Below are positions 24,220 to 33,402 of a stretch of DNA of 64,000 bases, in pieces (the stretch's first letter is position 1; every line of letters begins with the position of its first letter). The stretch covers positions 152,496-216,495 of the forward strand of contig JBAZQY010000002.1 in assembly GCA_041663185.1 (NCBI GenBank). The letters are read 5' to 3'. The notes beneath the pieces are model-generated. The model was not told the origin of the DNA. It was given only the letters and a program-made list of their open reading frames with translations, and ran no database searches. Made by a program: the position numbers and the translations under genes. The stretch is from Minisyncoccota bacterium. GTDB taxonomy: Bacteria; Patescibacteriota; Minisyncoccia; Phycocordibacterales; UBA9973.

Positions 24220-26145
24220 ATGAAAAAGTATTTTTTAATTAGTGGAATTCTGGTGTTTGTTTTAATTGGTTTGTTTACTCTAAATAGTAATGTCTTTGCT
24301 GTATCTGTGGAACCACAAGCTATAGTTACTACTTCAGATACAGAGGCAGAACCCCCAACAGCAACTATCATAGCCACAAAGATTGTTTGTGATAATGAAA
24401 AAGATTTACCAGATTGGGGGAGTGGTGGAGCTGATATAACAGAAAATACTGCCATGAGTTTTGTTTTAGAAAATAATAATTGTCAGATAGTCCCTTGGAC
24501 ATTTGAATGGTCTGTTGATTGGAATACTAACCCCGGAGATAATCTTTTATCTGGTGGAGAAGGGTGGAATTCTTTTGAGGGCAAAGCAGAGATATCAACA
24601 GGAAAAGGATTAAATATATTAGTTCGTGAACGAATGAAAGATGAATATATCCCATTTACAGGACCAAACGATAAGGATGCTATTTCAGCAGAATTTTATT
24701 GTAATACAGATGTTTTAGCTTATGATAATTATGAATGGATAAATTCCATAGCTCCGGATGAAGTGTATTACTGTGTTGGATTTAATGTTTTAAAAGAAAT
24801 TTCACCGGAACCAATAAATGGTGGATGGAGTGCATGGAGTGAAAAAAATAATACCTGTGGATATTCAGGAACCCAGACAAGAACATGTACTAATCCCTCT
24901 CCAGCCAATGGTGGGGCAGATTGTAGTTTGTTAGACGGTGGAAATTTGACTCAGGCATACACAAATGATGCTTGTGGAATAACCCAACAGTGTAATATTA
25001 AAAGTGACAATACCAATGTTCTTGGAAACAATAGAGGTAGTGCAGTTCCAACATGGAAATCTACCAATTGGGTTCAATCAATCCCAACATCGAGTGCTTT
25101 ATGGATATGGAATGCATATCATGTTACGGCAGAGAGTGCAAAAAATGGCGAGAATGAGACCTTTACTAAAACATTTAACGTTGGAGAAAATATTACCTCG
25201 GCAAGTATTAAATTAGCTGTTGATAATGGATATAGATTAGAAATAAATGGGACAGAGGTGATAAATAGAATGGCTGATCAATATAAATATACTAATTTTC
25301 AATCTCTGACAACAATAGATATAAAAAGTTATCTAGTTACAGGAACAAATACTATAAAATTTTACGTCAGAAATTATTCATCATCATCTAATAGCCCAAC
25401 AGTTAATCCAGCCGGACTCATGTATGATCTTACTTTAGTGAGTGATACTTGTTCAGTAAATAATGAAGCGGTTGTTGTAAATGGCGGATGGAGTGCTTGG
25501 AGTACGAAAGATAATTCTTGTGGAATAACAGGAACGGAAACTCGTACTTGTACAAATCCAAGTCCTCTAAATGGAGGGTTGGATTGTAGTTTACTTGATG
25601 GAGGAAATTCCTCACGAGTGTACACAAATGATGCATGTGGTAGTACACCGATTGATATGTGTCTAAATATTGAAGGAGTTCAAACAACAATTCCAAATGG
25701 AATGGAAGTAAATAATGATAAAGAATGTACAGAGATAGAATCTAGGGACAGCGGTTCAACATATGGTTCTAGATCTACTAAAGTAGCAATAGCTAATGCT
25801 AATGAAGGAAGAGTCCTCGGAGCTAGTACTTCTTGTGGACAATATTTGTTTACTTATATCAAATATGGAACTACTAATGATAAAAGTGAAGTAATTAAAT
25901 TGCAACAATTTCTAAATGAGTATTTGACTTTGAATCTTCCAGTTGATGGATACTATGGATTAGAAACATATAATGCCGTCAAAACATTTCAACTCAAACA
26001 TTCTCCGGAAGTCTTAAGACCATGGGTGGGTGTTAGTTTGAAGAATGAGTCAAAAGGTACTGGTTGGATGTATAAAACAACTCAAAGATGGATAAACATG
26101 ATAAAGTGCCCAGAGTTAAATTTACCAATGCCAATTTTACCATAA
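24220..26145 (+). CDS. large secreted protein with two thrombospondin type-1 (TSP1)-like repeats and a C-terminal PG_binding_1-like domain
   Basis: Signal peptide. Two copies of [15 protein letters not shown]..[25 protein letters not shown]...TNDACG (WSxWS plus six Cys). The C-terminal [25 protein letters not shown] matches the LxxxG..DGxFGxxTxxAVxxFQ peptidoglycan-binding pattern. Confidence 0.8.
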
Positions 26146-27017: not shown

Positions 27018-27416
27018 ATGGAGAATTTTCAGATAAAAAATATTTTTGATAATATTTCAAAAGGCGAAATGGATCAAGTCGCCGGGATAAAAATCACTCA
27101 TTTGGCTGGCGGAGAAGATTTGAGTTTTTATTTGGCCGAAATAGAATCACATAAAAAGATCAATGCACATTACCACGCAGATGGTACTGAAATCTATCAA
27201 ATATTCGAAGGTTCCGGAGAGATTCGGATTAGTAAAAATGAAAATACGAATCATTGGGATATTAAAAAAATAGTAAAGAAAGGGGACTGCTTTTCGGTAC
27301 AAGAAGGCGAAGTCCATCAATTAGTAAATACCGGAGAAGAAAAACTCATTTTACTTTTCGCTTGCCCGAAATCCCATTTATCAAACGATAGAACCGTGGT
27401 TGCGATAGAAAATTAG
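27018..27416 (+). CDS. cupin domain protein
   Basis: Two-His cupin motif 1 (HYHADGTEIYQIFEGSGEI) and motif 2 (GEVHQLVNTGEE). Confidence 0.65.
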   Translation: MENFQIKNIFDNISKGEMDQVAGIKITHLAGGEDLSFYLAEIESHKKINAHYHADGTEIYQIFEGSGEIRISKNENTNHWDIKKIVKKGDCFSVQEGEVHQLVNTGEEKLILLFACPKSHLSNDRTVVAIEN

Positions 27417-27514
27417 AAATAACAAATAAACCCAAGGGTTGTAAAAATTGTATTTTTTTGTTATTTTAAGTGAGTAATAATTCGTAATTCCTAATTGGTA
27501 ACTATTAATTATTT

Positions 27515-27580
27515 TGGCCCCATCGTCTAACGGTTAGGACATCGCCTTTGAAAGGTTGAAGTTTGGGATGGGACCCAAAC
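27515..27580 (+). pseudogene. degenerate tRNA-like element: exact copy of the first 33 nt of the downstream tRNA-Glu, then diverged
   Basis: GGCCCCATCGTCTAACGGTTAGGACATCGCCTT is identical to 27709-27741. The following sequence does not form a canonical anticodon/T-arm/acceptor (a GTTTGGG/CCCAAAC hairpin replaces them). Confidence 0.4.
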
Positions 27581-27708
27581 AAAAAACCTGTGATAGTATT
27601 ATATGAGTTATAACGAAATAGAATACAGAACAGGTGTACTGCTTCTGTAAGAAGGTAAATTCTGAGGTCGATTCGAATCGAACTTTGATTAAAATAAAAT
27701 AAAAAATT

Positions 27709-27780
27709 TGGCCCCATCGTCTAACGGTTAGGACATCGCCTTCTCAAGGCGGTAATCAGAGTTCGATTCTCTGTGGGGTC
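27709..27780 (+). tRNA. tRNA-Glu (anticodon CTC)
   Basis: A 72-nt cloverleaf was folded by hand. It has a 7-bp acceptor stem (GGCCCCA/TGGGGTC), a D arm (GTCT..GGAC), an anticodon stem TCGCC/GGCGG with loop TTCTCAA, and a T arm CAGAG-TTCGATT-CTCTG. No CCA is encoded. Confidence 0.8.
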
Positions 27781-27832
27781 ACAAACGCGGTATTCAAAAA
27801 GAGTGCACTTCTGCACTCTTTTTCGCGTTTGT
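27781..27832 (+). terminator. nested hairpin terminator after the tRNA
   Basis: caaacgcg...aagagtgca-cttc-tgcactctt-ttt...cgcgtttg. Confidence 0.5.
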
Positions 27833-28032
27833 GAAGACGGAAGCATATTTTTCTAGTAAGAAAAATAGCTGAGTCCGGGGCTGGAAAATTTGCTTTTGAC
27901 GAAAAGCAAATTATTGTGGCTCACATAGATTATGCATGCGAAGCATACAAAATTTATTTTAACGTTGGAGTTTGAGAAAATTAAAAAGCCACTACTATAA
28001 TTCGTGGCTTATTTTAGCAACCTACGGACACG

Positions 28033-28386
28033 TTAATTTTTCGAGATAACCTCCAGCAAGGGTTTGAGTCTTTCGGAGCGCTGAAGTTTTACTGTCCATT
28101 CGGTTTTTTCTTCAGGGTTTAATTTCCTGTATCCCTTAATTCCCACATGCTTTCCCTTGACCTTTTCGTTGGAAATATATAACCGGTCTGTCCAGACGTC
28201 ACTTACAGGATAGGGAATTTTAGAGTTTTCCAGTAAATCCACCAGCTTGAAACCAAGCAACATCGTAGCGCCAGTAATTGATCCAACTTCCTTTTGCTTT
28301 ACAAAATATGGTTCTTTACGACCATCTTCAAACTCAATCAAAATGATAGAGTTCTCATCAATTTCTGAATGAATTAAGTATTTCAT
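28033..28386 (-). CDS. hypothetical protein (117 aa)
   Basis: Clean ORF at the edge of the defence island, with no motif recognised. Confidence 0.5.
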   Translation of the reverse strand: MKYLIHSEIDENSIILIEFEDGRKEPYFVKQKEVGSITGATMLLGFKLVDLLENSKIPYPVSDVWTDRLYISNEKVKGKHVGIKGYRKLNPEEKTEWTVKLQRSERLKPLLEVISKN

Positions 28387-28516
28387 TTTGTGAGAATTTA
28401 GTTAAACACTTTTTTCTTCACATTACCTCATATTTCGTATTTTGGCAAGATAGGGAAGTAAATACCCATATATTCTTTACAATTTGATTCCAATTTTGTC
28501 CCACCTGAGGTTCATC

Positions 28517-28545
28517 TAACGGGAATAGCAAGAACCGTTCTTGCT
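28517..28545. promoter_or_regulatory. 29-bp near-perfect palindrome upstream of the C-protein gene (candidate C-box/operator)
   Basis: gaatagcaagaac-c-gttcttgctattc, with 13-nt arms perfectly complementary. It lies about 70 nt upstream of the preferred C-gene start, between divergent genes, so it is not a terminator. Confidence 0.4.
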
Positions 28546-28617
28546 ATTCAGGGGGTTTGGTGAGGAATGCGGGGGCGACCCTGTATTGTATTATATGGCA
28601 ATTTGGAATATTACGCA

Positions 28618-28860
28618 ATGGAATATTATAATAATCTTATGCCTAGAGCAATATATACAAAAGACCATAATGAAATTGTTAAGCGCTTAGTAAAAGCACG
28701 ACTAGAGTCTGGACTAGGACAAGTTGAAGTTGCTAAAAAATTAGGGAAAACTCAATCATATCTTTCTAAAATAGAATCCGGACAAAGAAGATTTGATGTT
28801 TTGCAATTAAAAGAATTTGCAAAACTTTATAAAAAACCATTAGACTATTTTGTTAAATAA
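28618..28860 (+). CDS. restriction-modification controller (C) protein, XRE-family HTH
   Basis: About 80 aa from the in-frame ATG at 28618 (MEYYNNLMPRAIY...). HTH_XRE pattern: GLGQVEVAKKLGKTQSYLSKIESGQR. Its 3' end overlaps the next gene, as in C-R operons. The track start at 28567 is an alternative. Confidence 0.7.
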   Translation: MEYYNNLMPRAIYTKDHNEIVKRLVKARLESGLGQVEVAKKLGKTQSYLSKIESGQRRFDVLQLKEFAKLYKKPLDYFVK

Positions 28861-28864
28861 ATAT

Positions 28865-29428
28865 ATGAAAAAAAATAAAATTACTGTAACGATTAATAAG
28901 AAACAAATCAAGCTTGATATCTTAAAAATAGAAAGCTCTGATAAAGCTAAATTACGAACAATATTTAAGCGTTGGTTGGAACTTAGTAATTTACTTAAAA
29001 GTCTTGGTTCAAGAGGGGTAAATATACCAGAAGGACTTACAGAAAGTTTATTTTGCTTGGAAATGAATTCTGCTAGGGTTATTAAAGCATATAATTCAAA
29101 AGGTTCATTTGATACAATCAACAGGAATAATAATAAAAGACAACAGGTAAAGGCAACAAGTAGTAGTGGTCCTACTTCATTTGGACCAAATTCTTTTTGG
29201 GATGAAAATGAGTTATATTTAATGGATTTTGTTGGAAAGGATGGAATAATAGATGGAACTTTTAGTATTTATAGAATTCTTGATAAATATATTTATCTCT
29301 CTAAGGTAAATAAAACTGAAAGATTATCAGATCAACAGGCCCAAAAAAGAAGACCCAGGATGGATTTAAGGAAAGATGTTGTAATAAAATACAAATTAAA
29401 ACCAATTAAAAAAGGTTCTATCGTTTAG
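28865..29428 (+). CDS. candidate type II restriction endonuclease (small, basic, no recognisable fold)
   Basis: 187 aa directly after and overlapping the C gene, and convergent with the methyltransferase. The assignment is positional inference only. Confidence 0.35.
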   Translation: MKKNKITVTINKKQIKLDILKIESSDKAKLRTIFKRWLELSNLLKSLGSRGVNIPEGLTESLFCLEMNSARVIKAYNSKGSFDTINRNNNKRQQVKATSSSGPTSFGPNSFWDENELYLMDFVGKDGIIDGTFSIYRILDKYIYLSKVNKTERLSDQQAQKRRPRMDLRKDVVIKYKLKPIKKGSIV

Positions 29429-31006
29429 TTACTCCATTGCTTTCATCATCTGTTTAGCCACAGCTTCTACTACTGGAACACTCACAGAGTTTCCAAATTG
29501 TTTATACAATGCAGAATCTGCTAAAGGAGGTAATTTAAAACTATTTGGAAATCCTTGTATTCTTGAACACTCAAGGGGTGTTAATTTTCTTATTCCTTTC
29601 TTATCTTTAATTATCGGAACATTGTGTCCACCCATTCCCATGTTAGCTGTAAGTGTAGGGCAAACTCCACTTTTATTCTCTCTGACATATTGTCTTCTCC
29701 ATTGATATACTTTTCCTTCTTCTTTTACATCTTTTTTTAGTTTTTCAAAAAGAGGCTTTCCGTTGTAATAGTATTTCTCAGAAACATTTTTCTCTAATAA
29801 ATCAGTAATTTTTACATTAAGTTTAATAGGCTCAGGAAATGTAAATTTATCTGAATACTCTTTATTTTTAAACCCAACGATATATATACGTTCACGATTT
29901 TGAGGGACATTACCATATTCCATTGTATTTAATACTTTTGCTTTAACATGATATCCTAAATCTTTTAGAGTTTCTTCAATTATTCTAAATGTGTTGCCTT
30001 CGTCATGGCTTTTTAGATTTTTTACATTTTCAAGTAAAAATCCTTCTGGATTTTTTGCTTTAATAATTTTGGCTATATCAAAGAATAAATTACCTCTATT
30101 TTTTGGATCATCAAATCCTTTACGATATCCTGCAATAGAAAAAGCCTGACAAGGGAAACCTCCTAATATAAAATCAAATTCTGGTAAATCATTAATCCCT
30201 ATTTTTCTTATATCTTCAACTATCAATTTTGAATCTTTAAAATTAAGATCATATGTTTGCTTACAGGGTGCATCAAAATCATTTGCAAAAACTGTTTTAA
30301 ATCCTGCATTTTCAAATCCCATTCTTATGCCACCTATTCCAGCAAATAGATCTATTGTTTTAAATCCGTGTTTTGTTTTCTTTTGAGGTTTTACTTCCTG
30401 TTCTATTTTTGGATTACTTATAATCTGAACAACTACACCACGAACTTCAACTTCTTTTCTGTAAAAAGGAAGCATTGATTGATTCCTAGGTTCTAGTCTA
30501 AATCTATTTTTATCTCGATATAGTTTTTTTAATGTTGCTTCATTGTCGTCAATAATAGCAACTACGGTTTGTCCGTTTTCAGCCACTGATTGCTTTTTTA
30601 TTATTACAATATCCCCATTAAATATTCCTTCTTCTATCATACTGTCTCCTTGGACTCTTAGTGCATAATAATCTTTAGGACTTTTAATATTTGAGTTAAT
30701 TATTGAAATGGCATCTTGTTTATCTTCAATCGCTTCTATTGGATAACCTGCTGCGATAGTTCCCATAACTGGTATTTCAATGATTTGAAAATTTTCTTTA
30801 TTAGTTTCTATACTTCTTGATAAATTATCAGACTTTGAAATGTAGCCTTTTTCTTTTAAAGCGTTTACATGTTCATGTACAGTAGAAATTGCTTTTAATT
30901 TAAATTTCTTTCGTATCTCGTCATTAGTAGGAGATATACCATTTTCATTGATATATGAGTTAATAAAATCCAGTATTAATTTTTGTTTTTTTGTTAGTGT
31001 TTGCAT
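29429..31006 (-). CDS. LexA repressor (HTH + S24 peptidase) fused to a DNA (cytosine-5)-methyltransferase
   Basis: N-terminus: MQTLTKKQKLILDFI..ISPTNDEIRKKF..ISTVHEHVNALKEKGYI (LexA DNA-binding domain), Ala-Gly site (IAAGYP), S24 catalytic Ser (VQGDSM) and Lys (EATLKKLYR). C-terminus: m5C-MTase motifs I (DLFAGIGGIRMGF), IV (GGFPCQAFS), VI (ENVKNL), VIII (QNRERIYIVG), IX (RKLTPLECSRIQGFP) and X (QFGNSV). The track ORF extends 21 codons upstream to 31069. The ATG at 31004-31006 matches the canonical LexA start. Confidence 0.85.
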   Translation of the reverse strand: MQTLTKKQKLILDFINSYINENGISPTNDEIRKKFKLKAISTVHEHVNALKEKGYISKSDNLSRSIETNKENFQIIEIPVMGTIAAGYPIEAIEDKQDAISIINSNIKSPKDYYALRVQGDSMIEEGIFNGDIVIIKKQSVAENGQTVVAIIDDNEATLKKLYRDKNRFRLEPRNQSMLPFYRKEVEVRGVVVQIISNPKIEQEVKPQKKTKHGFKTIDLFAGIGGIRMGFENAGFKTVFANDFDAPCKQTYDLNFKDSKLIVEDIRKIGINDLPEFDFILGGFPCQAFSIAGYRKGFDDPKNRGNLFFDIAKIIKAKNPEGFLLENVKNLKSHDEGNTFRIIEETLKDLGYHVKAKVLNTMEYGNVPQNRERIYIVGFKNKEYSDKFTFPEPIKLNVKITDLLEKNVSEKYYYNGKPLFEKLKKDVKEEGKVYQWRRQYVRENKSGVCPTLTANMGMGGHNVPIIKDKKGIRKLTPLECSRIQGFPNSFKLPPLADSALYKQFGNSVSVPVVEAVAKQMMKAME

Positions 31007-31137
31007 ATTGCTAAATAATATATGTTTTGCTACAATTCTATTATAACCGAATATATACCGAAAGTGCAAGCAGTTACCTATAGATATTATAAATAACTGT
31101 TACAAGTCGAAATTTATTAAAAAATAAAACGATTTTT

Positions 31138-32040
31138 ATGTCATCAATTATTCAAGATTTACAAATTGAAGCTACAGATCAAAGTAACTCATGCTCAGAT
31201 TTATTAAGAAAAGCGAAGATTGTTGCTGTTAAACTCGATTTAGAAGAGTTTGCAGAGTGGATAGAAAAAGAATTAAATGGATACAAAGGTTTCTCAAATA
31301 AAGACCTCCCAGATTATAGAATAGTAAGTGGAGAACCAAAAGCTTGGAATCCATATCATGGCTGGCAACCTATTTTGTTTGGTGATACAGAGGCTGGAGA
31401 TATCATGGCAAAAAGAGGCGTAATGCAACCCATCGGTGAACTTGATGATCTTGCAAAAACAGATTCAAGTACTTTCATGATTGATTACAATACTTCTGCC
31501 AAAAAACAAATAATGGAGGCTATTGGCTTTGAAACAGATATAAAATTTATGATAGGTAGAACTGCCGTTACTGGGATCTTGGATGGTGTACGAAATTTAA
31601 TACTTGATTGGGCTTTAAGATTAGAAAAGGCAGGTGTAGCAGGAGAAGGTATTTCTTTTTCTAAAGAAGATAAAGAGAGAGCAAAAATAACTGGTGATAT
31701 CTATAATGTAGGTCATATCGAAAATTTTGCTGGTACATTAGGAAATGTGTCTGATGATGTTACTCTTAATGTTCATCAAATTAATACGAAATCAATAGAA
31801 GAAATAAAAAAATTAACTGATCAAATTAATAAATATACCCCAGATATTGACTTACCAATAGAAAGAAAAAGTGAAGTTAATGATATAGTTACAGAATTAA
31901 AGAATGAGCTTTCTAAAAAATCACCGGAACAATCCAATATAAAATTGGCATTAAGGTCGTTAAAAACTATTTTTGAAGCTGTAGCAGGAAATGTTATTGC
32001 ACAAGGTATTATTGTTGAGATTAGTAAGTATATTCACTAA
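31138..32040 (+). CDS. AbiTii-like abortive infection protein
   Basis: The N-terminal pattern IIQDLQIEATD..CSDLLRKAKIVAVKLDLEEFAEWIEKELNGY resembles the AbiTii family signature. This is recalled from memory rather than searched. Confidence 0.55.
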   Translation: MSSIIQDLQIEATDQSNSCSDLLRKAKIVAVKLDLEEFAEWIEKELNGYKGFSNKDLPDYRIVSGEPKAWNPYHGWQPILFGDTEAGDIMAKRGVMQPIGELDDLAKTDSSTFMIDYNTSAKKQIMEAIGFETDIKFMIGRTAVTGILDGVRNLILDWALRLEKAGVAGEGISFSKEDKERAKITGDIYNVGHIENFAGTLGNVSDDVTLNVHQINTKSIEEIKKLTDQINKYTPDIDLPIERKSEVNDIVTELKNELSKKSPEQSNIKLALRSLKTIFEAVAGNVIAQGIIVEISKYIH

Positions 32041-32044
32041 TTAA

Positions 32045-32689
32045 ATGAAATCCATAAAAGATTTTATCAATTTATTAAATCAAAACCTTGGCTTAATTCA
32101 AGCAATTTCAACAATTATACTTGTCATTATTACAGCATGGTATGCTATTTCTACTAAACGAATGGCAAATTTAATGAGAGCACAAATAACATCTAAAATT
32201 AAGATAGAAAATACATCAATAGGTTCACAGTTTAATGAAGATTGGATATTAAAACACGGTTTTGATAAAAATAGTTTCTTAACAATAAAAGCTATTTTTG
32301 ATATCAGAAATGAAGGAAATGCCTCAGGTAGTATTTATAAACCGTCTTTAGAGATTAGTCTTCCTGTAATTAATTTATCTTTTAAAATTGGTCCAAAAAC
32401 TAAATCCTATGAAGATTATAATTTTAAATCAAATGGCAATATGACTTCTTATGATACTAGAACGATAAATCATGGAACTTCAATATTTTTGCAAGGCGGT
32501 GGTTCAGAAAGAATAGAACTTAATTATCACTTTGACATCAATACAGATGATAAGCTAAATTTTACAAATGAAGCTAAAAAGAATCCGTCTAATATTAAAT
32601 ATTATTTAATTACAATCGATAATTTTGGAAGAGAACATAAGATTTTAGTTTCTGATATAAAAGAAGAAAGAAATTTTGGACTTAAATAA
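32045..32689 (+). CDS. membrane-anchored partner protein of the AbiTii-like gene (N-terminal TM, beta-rich body)
   Basis: Separated from the upstream gene by 4 nt. The TM helix is LGLIQAISTIILVIITAWYAIS. Confidence 0.45.
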   Translation: MKSIKDFINLLNQNLGLIQAISTIILVIITAWYAISTKRMANLMRAQITSKIKIENTSIGSQFNEDWILKHGFDKNSFLTIKAIFDIRNEGNASGSIYKPSLEISLPVINLSFKIGPKTKSYEDYNFKSNGNMTSYDTRTINHGTSIFLQGGGSERIELNYHFDINTDDKLNFTNEAKKNPSNIKYYLITIDNFGREHKILVSDIKEERNFGLK

Positions 32690-32748: not shown

Positions 32749-33402
32749 TTACTTCGTAACTAACCATGCACGTGACCAGATTCGGCAAATGTGATAATAG
32801 TCATTTTCAAGCATGAAACCGAAAGACAATTCTTCGCGCATGAAATGTCCATCTCCACCAAAAAGTCCACTGAGTCCTTTTTCTTTGTCTTGCGTAAATG
32901 AAGTACCCCAACGCTTACGTTCACTTTCGATAAATAGCCAGAGAGTTTCTACGACGGTCATTTGTTGATCAACGAAATTATCATATTCGTTTTCGTCTTT
33001 TATTGCACCGAACAAATAACGCAATCCAAATTTGGGAACAACCCTAATTTGCGTAATATAACCATCTTTGCCTGGTTTTTCAGATTCAGCACCAAATAAT
33101 GCAAAATCTTTTCCTGGATTAACAACCTGAGCAGATTGAATATCCATTATGCGCACCAAAGCTTCAAAGTCTGCTTTTGTAATGGAGTTATCGAAATAAA
33201 CAATTCCTCCACAAGCATCTTGTTCTGGGGCTCCTAAAAATGGATTCCCGTCATTTCTTTTTTGATAACCATAAAAACTGTTACCCATTGGAGCAAATTT
33301 TGAAAGATCTCCTGGTTCAACTTTAAGTTTATTATCGGAATAGATTAGTGGTGAAATACGAACTTTATCACCCATGTCAAAAATAATTCTTGTCGTTTCC
33401 AT
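32749..33402 (-). CDS. hypothetical protein (217 aa)
   Basis: Clean ORF on the minus strand at the right edge of the defence island, with no motif recognised. Confidence 0.5.
   Translation of the reverse strand: METTRIIFDMGDKVRISPLIYSDNKLKVEPGDLSKFAPMGNSFYGYQKRNDGNPFLGAPEQDACGGIVYFDNSITKADFEALVRIMDIQSAQVVNPGKDFALFGAESEKPGKDGYITQIRVVPKFGLRYLFGAIKDENEYDNFVDQQMTVVETLWLFIESERKRWGTSFTQDKEKGLSGLFGGDGHFMREELSFGFMLENDYYHICRIWSRAWLVTK

Follow-up and report, generated by a model that had tools for sequence, protein, structure and literature searches.

We analysed a 64,000-nucleotide stretch of a Minisyncoccota bacterium genome (GCA_041663185.1, contig JBAZQY010000002.1, positions 152,496 to 216,495 of the forward strand; hereafter the window) and focused on a compact Type II restriction-modification (R-M) cassette within it. 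The cassette comprises a controller (C) gene, an endonuclease (R) gene and, convergent with these two, a methyltransferase (M) gene whose product joins a complete LexA repressor to a cytosine-5 (C5) DNA methyltransferase in one polypeptide. The three genes are listed first, followed by the residue map of the fusion protein.

28639..28860, plus strand: gene for the C (controller) protein, HTH_3 family, most likely 73 amino acids (aa) from the ATG at 28639 (80 aa if read from 28618).
28865..29428, plus strand: gene for a Type II restriction endonuclease of the Bsp6I family, 187 aa, whose stop codon abuts that of the fusion gene with a 0-bp gap.
29429..31006, minus strand: LexA-C5 methyltransferase fusion gene, 525 aa, a single continuous open reading frame (ORF).

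Residues 1-64: LexA winged helix-turn-helix (HTH).
Residues 79-198: S24 autoprotease, with the Ala86-Gly87 cleavage site, Ser122 and Lys160.
Residues 199-214: variable linker.
Residues 215-525: C5 methyltransferase.

An initial annotation, made by reading the letters alone, had proposed that LexA and a C5 methyltransferase share one polypeptide, and profile searches bear this out. Pfam places LexA_DNA_bind (PF01726) at residues 1-64 (E=9e-17), Peptidase_S24 at residues 79-193 (E=2e-29) and DNA_methylase (PF00145) at residues 215-521 (profile positions 1-323/324, E=1.7e-94). The protein scores 178.2 bits on TIGR00498, the NCBIfam equivalog model for lexA (cutoff 110.95; residues 1-198), and 347 bits on the dcm model TIGR00675. 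Its first 200 residues align end to end with the Thermotoga and E. coli LexA structures, and alignment to the solved structure matches its DNA-binding domain to E. coli LexA residues 1-65. In the same structure-based alignment IAAG (84-87), GDSM (120-123) and TLKKL (158-162) fall on E. coli A84-G85, S119 and K156, making A86-G87, S122 and K160 their counterparts; the HTH, Ala-Gly site and Ser/Lys dyad claimed for a full N-terminal LexA are all in place. The C-terminal methyltransferase is likewise complete, as had been claimed. The last 320 residues align over the whole of M.HhaI, motifs I (FxGxG), IV (PCQ), VI (ENV), VIII (QxRxR) and X are present, and the residues F221-G223-G225, P285-C286-Q287, E326-N327-V328, Q369-R371-R373 and G505-N506 are invariant in 36 sequences. 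The LexA-methyltransferase fusion at 29429-31006 is real. Separate translation of the methyltransferase was also considered; linker codons 199-216 contain no in-frame ATG, GTG or TTG, and the enzyme is not obviously made alone.

The fusion belongs to a large family. We scanned one genome per GTDB species by tblastn, found relatives in 372 species-level genomes, and fetched and compared 80 loci (L001-L080), in all of which the match spans essentially the whole fusion protein. The best 120 protein-database matches (E<=1e-275) are full-length, carry the same three domains and are 76-95% identical to the query; an identical protein is deposited from a Candidatus Paceibacterota metagenome-assembled genome (MAG) as 'transcriptional repressor LexA'. 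At least 120 protein clusters are represented, and a library clustered at 50% identity retains one full-length representative (P0121) plus fragments. The hosts are almost all Patescibacteria, including Paceibacteria, Nomurabacteria, Moranbacteria, Uhrbacteria, Falkowbacteria, Giovannonibacteria, Vogelbacteria and Shapirobacteria among others. These data dispose of the possibility, raised as a hazard by the initial annotation, that an assembly error or frameshift had joined lexA to an adjacent dcm gene. The architecture recurs at 521-528 aa in independent NCBI, JGI, ENA and Logan assemblies as well as in the 80 genome loci, and the linker varies in sequence yet always keeps frame; we regard the artefact as refuted and give it essentially no weight. 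A phage origin was considered too, and no such fusion was found in IMG/VR viral contigs, where only the methyltransferase domain finds matches.

Variants of the architecture occur. P0223 is a more distant full-length form of 777 aa in which LexA and the C5 methyltransferase are accompanied by an Eco57I-like N6 methylase domain. Close relatives of the methyltransferase are also found in other fusions, namely a Bsp6I endonuclease-C5 methyltransferase of 539 aa (P0241) and a RadC/JAB-C5 methyltransferase of 571 aa (P0162).

The initial annotation had suggested that LexA could link the methyltransferase to the SOS response and had pointed to 31007-31137 as one place to look for an operator. A direct repeat is present there, and its conservation inside the fusion gene's own promoter strengthens the regulatory idea. 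The promoter region contains the following elements.

31007..31039, minus strand: 5' untranslated region (UTR), AATTGTAGC..AA...GCAATATG, moderately conserved by alignment information content and without a Shine-Dalgarno sequence.
31040..31045, minus strand: -10 hexamer TATAAT of the fusion gene promoter, read from the sequence; TATAAT or TATACT in most of 78 aligned loci (consensus TATAaT).
31047..31062, minus strand: putative LexA-domain operator, direct repeat TTCGG-N6-TTCGG with an 11-bp period that takes up the -35/-10 spacer.
31064..31069, minus strand: -35-like hexamer TTGCAC with an 18-bp spacer, corresponding to a conserved GCTTTG/TTG block in relatives; it matches at 3/6 positions and falls below a consensus scan.

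An alignment of the 160-bp upstream regions from the 80 loci shows homology ending ~95 bp before the ATG of the fusion gene. Within this conserved block TTCGG-N6-TTCGG is the strongest signal, present in 78/80 loci with an invariant 6-bp spacing and always located between -35 and -10. Synonymous sites of the fusion gene are saturated (median dS, the synonymous divergence, >1.6), and therefore the intergenic conservation cannot reflect recent common descent. Each of 73 loci has one copy of the exact motif, always at the fusion promoter, and there are just two stray matches in ~1.1 Mb (L060 and L069, 7-9 kb from the fusion gene and without promoter elements around them). Across the 64 kb of the window it again has a single match, at the fusion promoter, and one-mismatch matches are at chance level. 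Some 49 loci carry the motif where tblastn gave no homologue of the window's C protein, so its presence goes with the fusion gene rather than with C.

The motif also appears to change together with the protein. Two loci lack it (L076 and L080) and instead carry ATCGAAA-N4-ATCGAAA just downstream of the -10; their recognition helix 3 reads STAHHHV, versus STIHEHI. A clade of six with CTTCGGTAAA half-sites has helix 3 STVHQHI. Such covariation, seen in few independent events, is the pattern expected if helix 3 reads the repeats. We conclude from these sequence patterns that TTCGG-N6-TTCGG is probably an operator for autoregulation rather than a member of an SOS regulon.

A second conserved element lies nearby. 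A perfect match to the DnaA-box consensus, TGTGGATAA, is found just upstream of the fusion -35 in 48/80 loci (between L003 and L075), 20-23 bp upstream of the first operator repeat, and this position accounts for two thirds of its 73 occurrences in 1.19 Mb. The equivalent in the window, at 31073-31083, is degenerate, as it is in the closest relatives, L001 and L002.

The operator distribution speaks to the idea that the fusion is the organism's global SOS repressor, one that acquired a methyltransferase domain and still controls recA, uvr and other genes. The protein does pass the LexA equivalog model, and the NCBI pipeline names it 'transcriptional repressor LexA'. Against this, a search for a global LexA regulon turned up the candidate box at no promoter but that of the fusion gene itself, in the window as in the 73 loci; the search covered the window and the flanking sequence of the 80 loci, in which no DNA-repair genes were seen. 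Moreover, the gene is always paired with a gene in the endonuclease position and travels as a cassette. The fusion protein keeps ~78% identity between distant lineages of Patescibacteria, and of 59 genes immediately upstream of it 45 are unique. The cassette is thus horizontally mobile, and it represents a large family and not a one-off. In three relatives it sits, by eye, beside apparent tRNA 3' ends.

Four genomes moreover encode a separate LexA close by. The stand-alone LexA genes lie within 10 kb of the cassette and score 113-142 bits on TIGR00498, above the cutoff and below the fused copy.

3305-3892 in L005: stand-alone LexA.
8346-8888 in L064: stand-alone LexA.
6063-6560 in L068: stand-alone LexA.
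7528-8076 in L078: stand-alone LexA.

Because these proteins pass the equivalog cutoff, the fusion is not the sole LexA of those four genomes. Combining these observations, we consider a global repressor role very improbable. Stand-alone LexA genes may occur near the cassette more often than chance would predict for ~1-Mb genomes; no second LexA was found in the 64-kb window.

If the fused LexA serves at its own promoter, does it also cleave itself? Across the 80 translated genes A86, S122 and K160 are invariant (80/80), and G87 and I84 are each kept in 79/80. Median ratios of nonsynonymous to synonymous divergence (dN/dS) are 0.10 in the DNA-binding domain, 0.11 in S24 and 0.05 in the methyltransferase. 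With dN/dS near 0.1 and synonymous sites saturated, it follows that the protease machinery has been kept by selection in old lineages. The evidence points to a functional LexA part, judged by these patterns of conservation.

These data bear on a simpler reading, in which the LexA module provides just DNA binding and dimerisation. The fusion would then be a constitutive autorepressor with SsoII-like homeostasis, its cleavage physiologically unused or not triggered by RecA* (the RecA-single-stranded DNA filament). The operator evidence backs autoregulation and is silent on cleavage, and LexA-like regulators that act independently of RecA exist, such as IrvR of S. mutans as treated in passages of PMC7101444. 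recA itself was not seen in the window or the 80 flanking regions, a tblastn search with E. coli RecA that is uninformative for ~1-Mb genomes. However, if the module were kept just for dimerisation, nothing would stop it from losing the Ala-Gly site, Ser122 and Lys160; all are invariant or nearly so in 80 sequences, and selection on these residues argues against this reading. The LexA region also scores 178 bits on the equivalog model, compared with the 113-142 bits of the four stand-alone LexA proteins of similar genomes. On balance we find a purely constitutive repressor unlikely.

The 187-aa neighbour, which the initial annotation had placed in the endonuclease position and described as overlapping C, does belong to a restriction endonuclease family. 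It matches RE_Bsp6I (PF09504; 34.7 bits against a cutoff of 25, E=1.8e-8, profile positions 8-167/179) and PADLOC REase_II (2.9e-20). The overlap did not hold up, since the ATG at 28865 leaves a 4-bp gap after C.

Word counts suggest what the cassette recognizes. GCWGC and GCSGC are the two most under-represented 5-mers, with observed/expected (O/E) ratios of 0.30 and 0.63 in the window and 0.54 and 0.61 in the pooled loci. Their O/E stays within 0.30-0.71 for every endonuclease group, except for GCSGC in the smallest group (0.88). We considered a GCGC (HhaI-like) specificity, suggested by the closest solved homologue, and rejected it because GCGC is not depleted in the window or the pooled loci whereas GCNGC is. 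This avoidance points to GCNGC as the probable specificity of the cassette. C5 methyltransferases hold their target-recognition domain between motifs VIII and IX, and that region hardly varies within the family.

Within ~5 kb around the cassette there is a single GCNGC site, at window position 30750, in the Ala-Ala-Gly codons of the fusion gene's cleavage site. Other words are depleted as well. GATC is the most under-represented 4-mer of the whole window (O/E 0.60) and GGCC is also low (0.71), which suggests further R-M pressure in this genome.

While the methyltransferase stays constant, its partner does not. All 75 loci with enough sequence (75/75) have a convergent ORF 0-38 bp after the methyltransferase stop codon, and these ORFs fall into eight families without mutual BLAST similarity.

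28 loci: Bsp6I-like family, which includes the window.
9 loci: NgoFVII-like family, with a strong PADLOC REase_II match.
8 loci: PD-(D/E)XK_5 family.
7 and 5 loci: two families with weak REase_II matches.
12, 3 and 3 loci: three families without a family match.

LexA-methyltransferases that are ~80% identical across loci are in this way paired with at least eight unrelated families in the endonuclease position. Taken together, the near-invariant motif VIII-IX region and the GCNGC depletion therefore indicate a probable GCNGC family in which M and its control region remain in place and the endonuclease is exchanged freely. GCNGC is depleted in all groups, including the three unmatched families, and these may be new GCNGC endonucleases.

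The third gene had been read as a controller convergent to the fusion and upstream of R, and this stands: its product matches HTH_3 (Pfam, E=3.6e-13), and conserved repeats lie at its own promoter. Homologues occur in 31/80 related loci (tblastn), usually as 73-aa ORFs. The proposed start at 28618, giving 80 aa, is less likely than the 73-aa start at 28639 found in most relatives; the upstream ATG is out of frame in some of them, for example L022. Two elements precede the gene.

28603..28632, plus strand: promoter of the C/R operon, -35 TTGGAA at 28603-28608 and -10 TATAAT at 28627-28632.
28604-28613 and 28619-28628, plus strand: C-box-like operator, direct repeats TGGAATATTA, overlapping the -35 and -10.

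The block ATGGCAATTTGGAATATTACGCAATGGAATAT upstream of C is common to 20/20 related loci with a readable C-upstream region. Leaderless transcripts are typical of C operons, and to judge by the promoter position the C-R transcript probably starts leaderless near the ATG at 28639.

How does this cassette compare with known systems? N-terminal repressor domains on C5 methylases are textbook knowledge. In SsoII, Ecl18kI and EcoRII, and in the M.MspI and M.ScrFI type, a DNA-binding domain precedes the C5 methyltransferase and acts at a site in the methyltransferase gene's own promoter, so that M is autoregulated (PMC12707154, PMC3874152), and the fusion resembles them in both respects. It differs from the SsoII type in that the fused module is a whole, potentially cleavable LexA (winged HTH plus S24 autoprotease, ~200 aa) in place of a short HTH, that its LexA-type DNA-binding domain is, on the tests made, no homologue of the SsoII HTH, and that its operator is a direct repeat. 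Furthermore, R is convergent here, with a promoter (28603-28632) ~2.4 kb away and its own C protein and operator, and for this reason an M-bound operator cannot switch an overlapping R promoter as in SsoII/Ecl18kI. Repressor domains on C5 methylases are already known; a complete, potentially cleavable LexA in that position appears to be new.

The LexA part itself aligns residue for residue with LexA (TIGR00498; PDB 1JHH, 3JSO, 3K2Z) at the cleavage site, the Ser/Lys dyad and the winged HTH. Unlike LexA, the fusion is joined to an enzyme, is borne on a mobile cassette, has a single operator at its own promoter in place of a regulon, and coexists with a stand-alone LexA in at least four genomes. 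Self-cleaving S24 modules that read host RecA* on behalf of mobile elements include lambda CI and SetR of the SXT-type integrative and conjugative elements, and UmuD is also an S24 protein. Those proteins stand alone and govern lysogeny, transfer or mutagenesis, whereas here the S24 module lies within the R-M effector enzyme.

The rest of the cassette has familiar counterparts. Like the C-controlled systems PvuII, AhdI, Esp1396I and Csp231I, it places a small HTH_3 gene before R, with repeats over the promoter and a probably leaderless transcript (PMC12707154). Those systems are usually described with one regulator or the other, and the cassette adds a second, independent regulator fused to M. 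The family also resembles the Bsp6I/Fnu4HI-type R-M systems and NgoFVII, pairing a PF09504 endonuclease, or an NgoFVII-like one, with the same methyltransferase. We take the recognition sites of these systems to be GCNGC for Bsp6I and Fnu4HI and GCSGC for NgoFVII. To our knowledge, a LexA regulatory module is no described feature of either.

We propose that the cassette is a GCNGC Type II system whose methylase is fused to a cleavable LexA autorepressor, following SsoII-like logic, and that modification is boosted upon SOS induction. We give this reading a probability of roughly 55%. It builds on the domains, the intact and selected cleavage and catalytic residues, the single-copy promoter operator that covaries with helix 3, the endonuclease family, the avoidance of GCNGC and the mobility of the cassette. 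Two circuits would operate. In the first, the C protein would control the C-R operon through the C-box-like repeats over its own, probably leaderless, promoter. In the second, the methyltransferase would be its own repressor, with the LexA module, dimeric via its S24 domain as in LexA, sitting on TTCGG-N6-TTCGG in the M promoter and holding M expression at a set point, as the dual-function methyltransferases SsoII, Ecl18kI and EcoRII do.

Because the repressor module is a complete LexA, we infer that RecA* arising from DNA damage or recombinational repair would trigger self-cleavage at Ala86-Gly87. Cleavage would detach the DNA-binding domain, and the N-terminal fragment, ending in -I-A-A, would be lost; the S24-methyltransferase body (~439 aa) would stay as a free, active methyltransferase, and the M promoter would be derepressed. 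Since the two stop codons abut, the convergent C-R transcript may in addition suffer interference from stronger M transcription. Overall, modification would rise transiently relative to restriction while repair and recombination yield unmethylated GCNGC sites, which would amount to a built-in, SOS-coupled restriction alleviation for a Type II system. A bolder statement casts the fusion as a pro-form that RecA* cuts, releasing an active methyltransferase, derepressing M and perhaps damping the R transcript, in what would be the first Type II system with an SOS-coupled restriction alleviation of its own, the LexA-methyltransferase and its operator forming a chassis for at least eight unrelated GCNGC endonucleases. 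We hold this fuller version tentatively, at somewhat less than even odds.

The proposed outcome parallels the damage-induced restriction alleviation of Type I systems, in which restriction falls relative to modification when unmodified sites arise (PMC12707154; passages of PMC11109961). Unmethylated sites left by replication or recombination launch that response, as these passages describe it (PMC11109961). The route differs: in Type I systems the host protease ClpXP degrades HsdR, whereas here a repressor fused to M would cleave itself. Both methyltransferase-fused repressors and damage-induced alleviation are established concepts (PMC12707154), and no Type II equivalent of the latter is established in the R-M reviews covered here.

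The same cleavage could instead have the opposite effect. Were it to destabilise the methyltransferase, through ClpXP or Lon for example, the cassette would act as a damage-triggered suicide or addiction switch, with self-restriction resembling abortive infection. In that case DNA damage, or RecA* induced by phage, would favour cutting of the host's newly made DNA. The -IAA end of the N-terminal fragment resembles the latent signal for ClpX that cleavage uncovers in E. coli LexA, and the cassette sits in a small defence island adjoining an AbiTii gene. R-M systems, moreover, act as addiction modules (PMC3874152). Yet cleavage would clear the repressor domain from the promoter, so new M synthesis should rise; old methylation persists and hemimethylated DNA is normally protected, making killing slow; and no sequence feature marks the S24-methyltransferase fragment for degradation. 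We consider such a switch improbable, more so than a constitutive autorepressor.

Several points weigh against an SOS-linked rise in modification. That the fusion binds DNA, acts as a repressor, is cleaved in dependence on RecA, leaves an active methyltransferase after cleavage and brings a physiological benefit are steps that we infer, taking LexA and the SsoII/Ecl18kI/EcoRII methylase-repressors as models. In E. coli the fragments of LexA are proteolysed, and a similar fate for the cleaved S24-methyltransferase could reverse the predicted outcome. That extra methylation would be of benefit during repair is a hypothesis taken over from Type I systems. An AlphaFold2 model of the fusion, built from a shallow 36-sequence alignment whose members are all at least 76% identical, reached a mean predicted local distance difference test (pLDDT) score of 59.7, with the whole LexA part below 50; the domain arrangement is unreadable and the model was not used. 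The uninformative recA search belongs here too, and the operator covariation rests on just two or three independent events. Finally, most LexA boxes are palindromic, that of Verrucomicrobia among them, whereas the operator here is a direct repeat. There is precedent for such a box in Alphaproteobacteria, where GTTC-N7-GTTC is a direct repeat with the same 11-bp period (PMC4951493).

The initial annotation had supposed that such a fusion was essentially undescribed, and the searchable literature agrees. We found no description of a LexA-methyltransferase fusion there (a 2017 paper on SOS networks in Patescibacteria by Sanchez-Osuna et al. is outside that coverage). It goes unmentioned in a 2014 review of R-M regulation (PMC3874152) and in a 2026 preprint on methyltransferases of the candidate phyla radiation (CPR, Patescibacteria), and the word 'LexA' occurs zero times in the 2025 EcoSal review of R-M biology (PMC12707154). 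Sequences of these proteins have been publicly available at least from the time of the GW2011 groundwater MAGs, annotated as LexA or as Dcm and never as both.

How Type II systems avoid killing their hosts at unmethylated sites made by repair and recombination is poorly understood, damage-responsive alleviation being established for Type I only. If our proposal is correct, a methyltransferase carrying its own self-cleaving LexA autorepressor would be a direct and self-contained solution, and a LexA/S24 switch that acts in cis on an enzyme, and not as a free repressor, would offer a ready design for damage-inducible enzyme release. The hypothesis is testable with one recombinant protein and a 50-bp DNA fragment. 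The family, concentrated in uncultivated Patescibacteria, should surprise R-M and SOS specialists alike. Annotation as LexA or as Dcm ('DNA (cytosine-5)-methyltransferase') could mislead both SOS-regulon reconstructions and defence-system surveys, and the exchange of endonucleases on a fixed platform of M plus regulator provides a clean natural data set on R-M module recombination.

The cassette lies in a small island between a tRNA-Glu gene (27710-27782) and housekeeping genes that begin at ~34 kb. Its immediate neighbour beyond the fusion gene is the following.

31138-32040, plus strand: AbiTii abortive-infection gene (PF18864, 2e-43), divergent from the fusion gene.

AbiTii and two unannotated ORFs (32045-32689 and 32749-33402) make up a small defence island beside the tRNA-Glu. 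In at least eight relatives the divergent gene, ~90 bp upstream of the fusion, is instead vsr (PF03852, 2.5e-22), which is not present in the window.

L006, L026, L033, L041, L044, L049, L065 and L077: vsr-neighboured loci, sharing the ~95-bp control region.

Vsr neighbours fit an active C5 methylase, as far as gene context goes.

On the other side of the cassette, the initial annotation had noted a 29-bp near-perfect palindrome at 28517-28545 and assigned it to the C-gene promoter region. The palindrome exists and is in fact perfect, at shifted coordinates.

28523..28549, no strand: perfect 13+1+13 palindrome, GAATAGCAAGAAC-C-GTTCTTGCTATTC, outside the conserved C operator.

A role for it in regulating C is not borne out. 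Related loci do not share its sequence but have other long hairpins at that position, and the conserved C-box-like repeats lie 55-80 bp downstream, overlapping the C promoter. We rejected it both as a C operator and as a LexA box: it is unconserved, lies upstream of the conserved promoter/operator block and has no TTCGG half-site. It probably forms an insulating hairpin or marks the cassette's edge.

In a subset of cassettes, long hairpins just upstream of the C promoter have a G-rich motif, GGGGTTTGG(G/T)GAGGAAT, next to them or in their loop (window 28552-28568; L021 at ~3196, minus strand; L034 at ~5906, minus strand). An Rfam scan of 27400-31400 returned tRNA-Glu only, with no match at the palindrome, the 5' UTR or the G-rich motif. 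Farther upstream, at 24220-26145 on the plus strand, the window encodes a secreted-looking protein of 641 aa that combines two thrombospondin type-1-like repeats (WSAWS...CG...TRTCTNPSP), unusual for a bacterium, with a peptidoglycan-binding domain.

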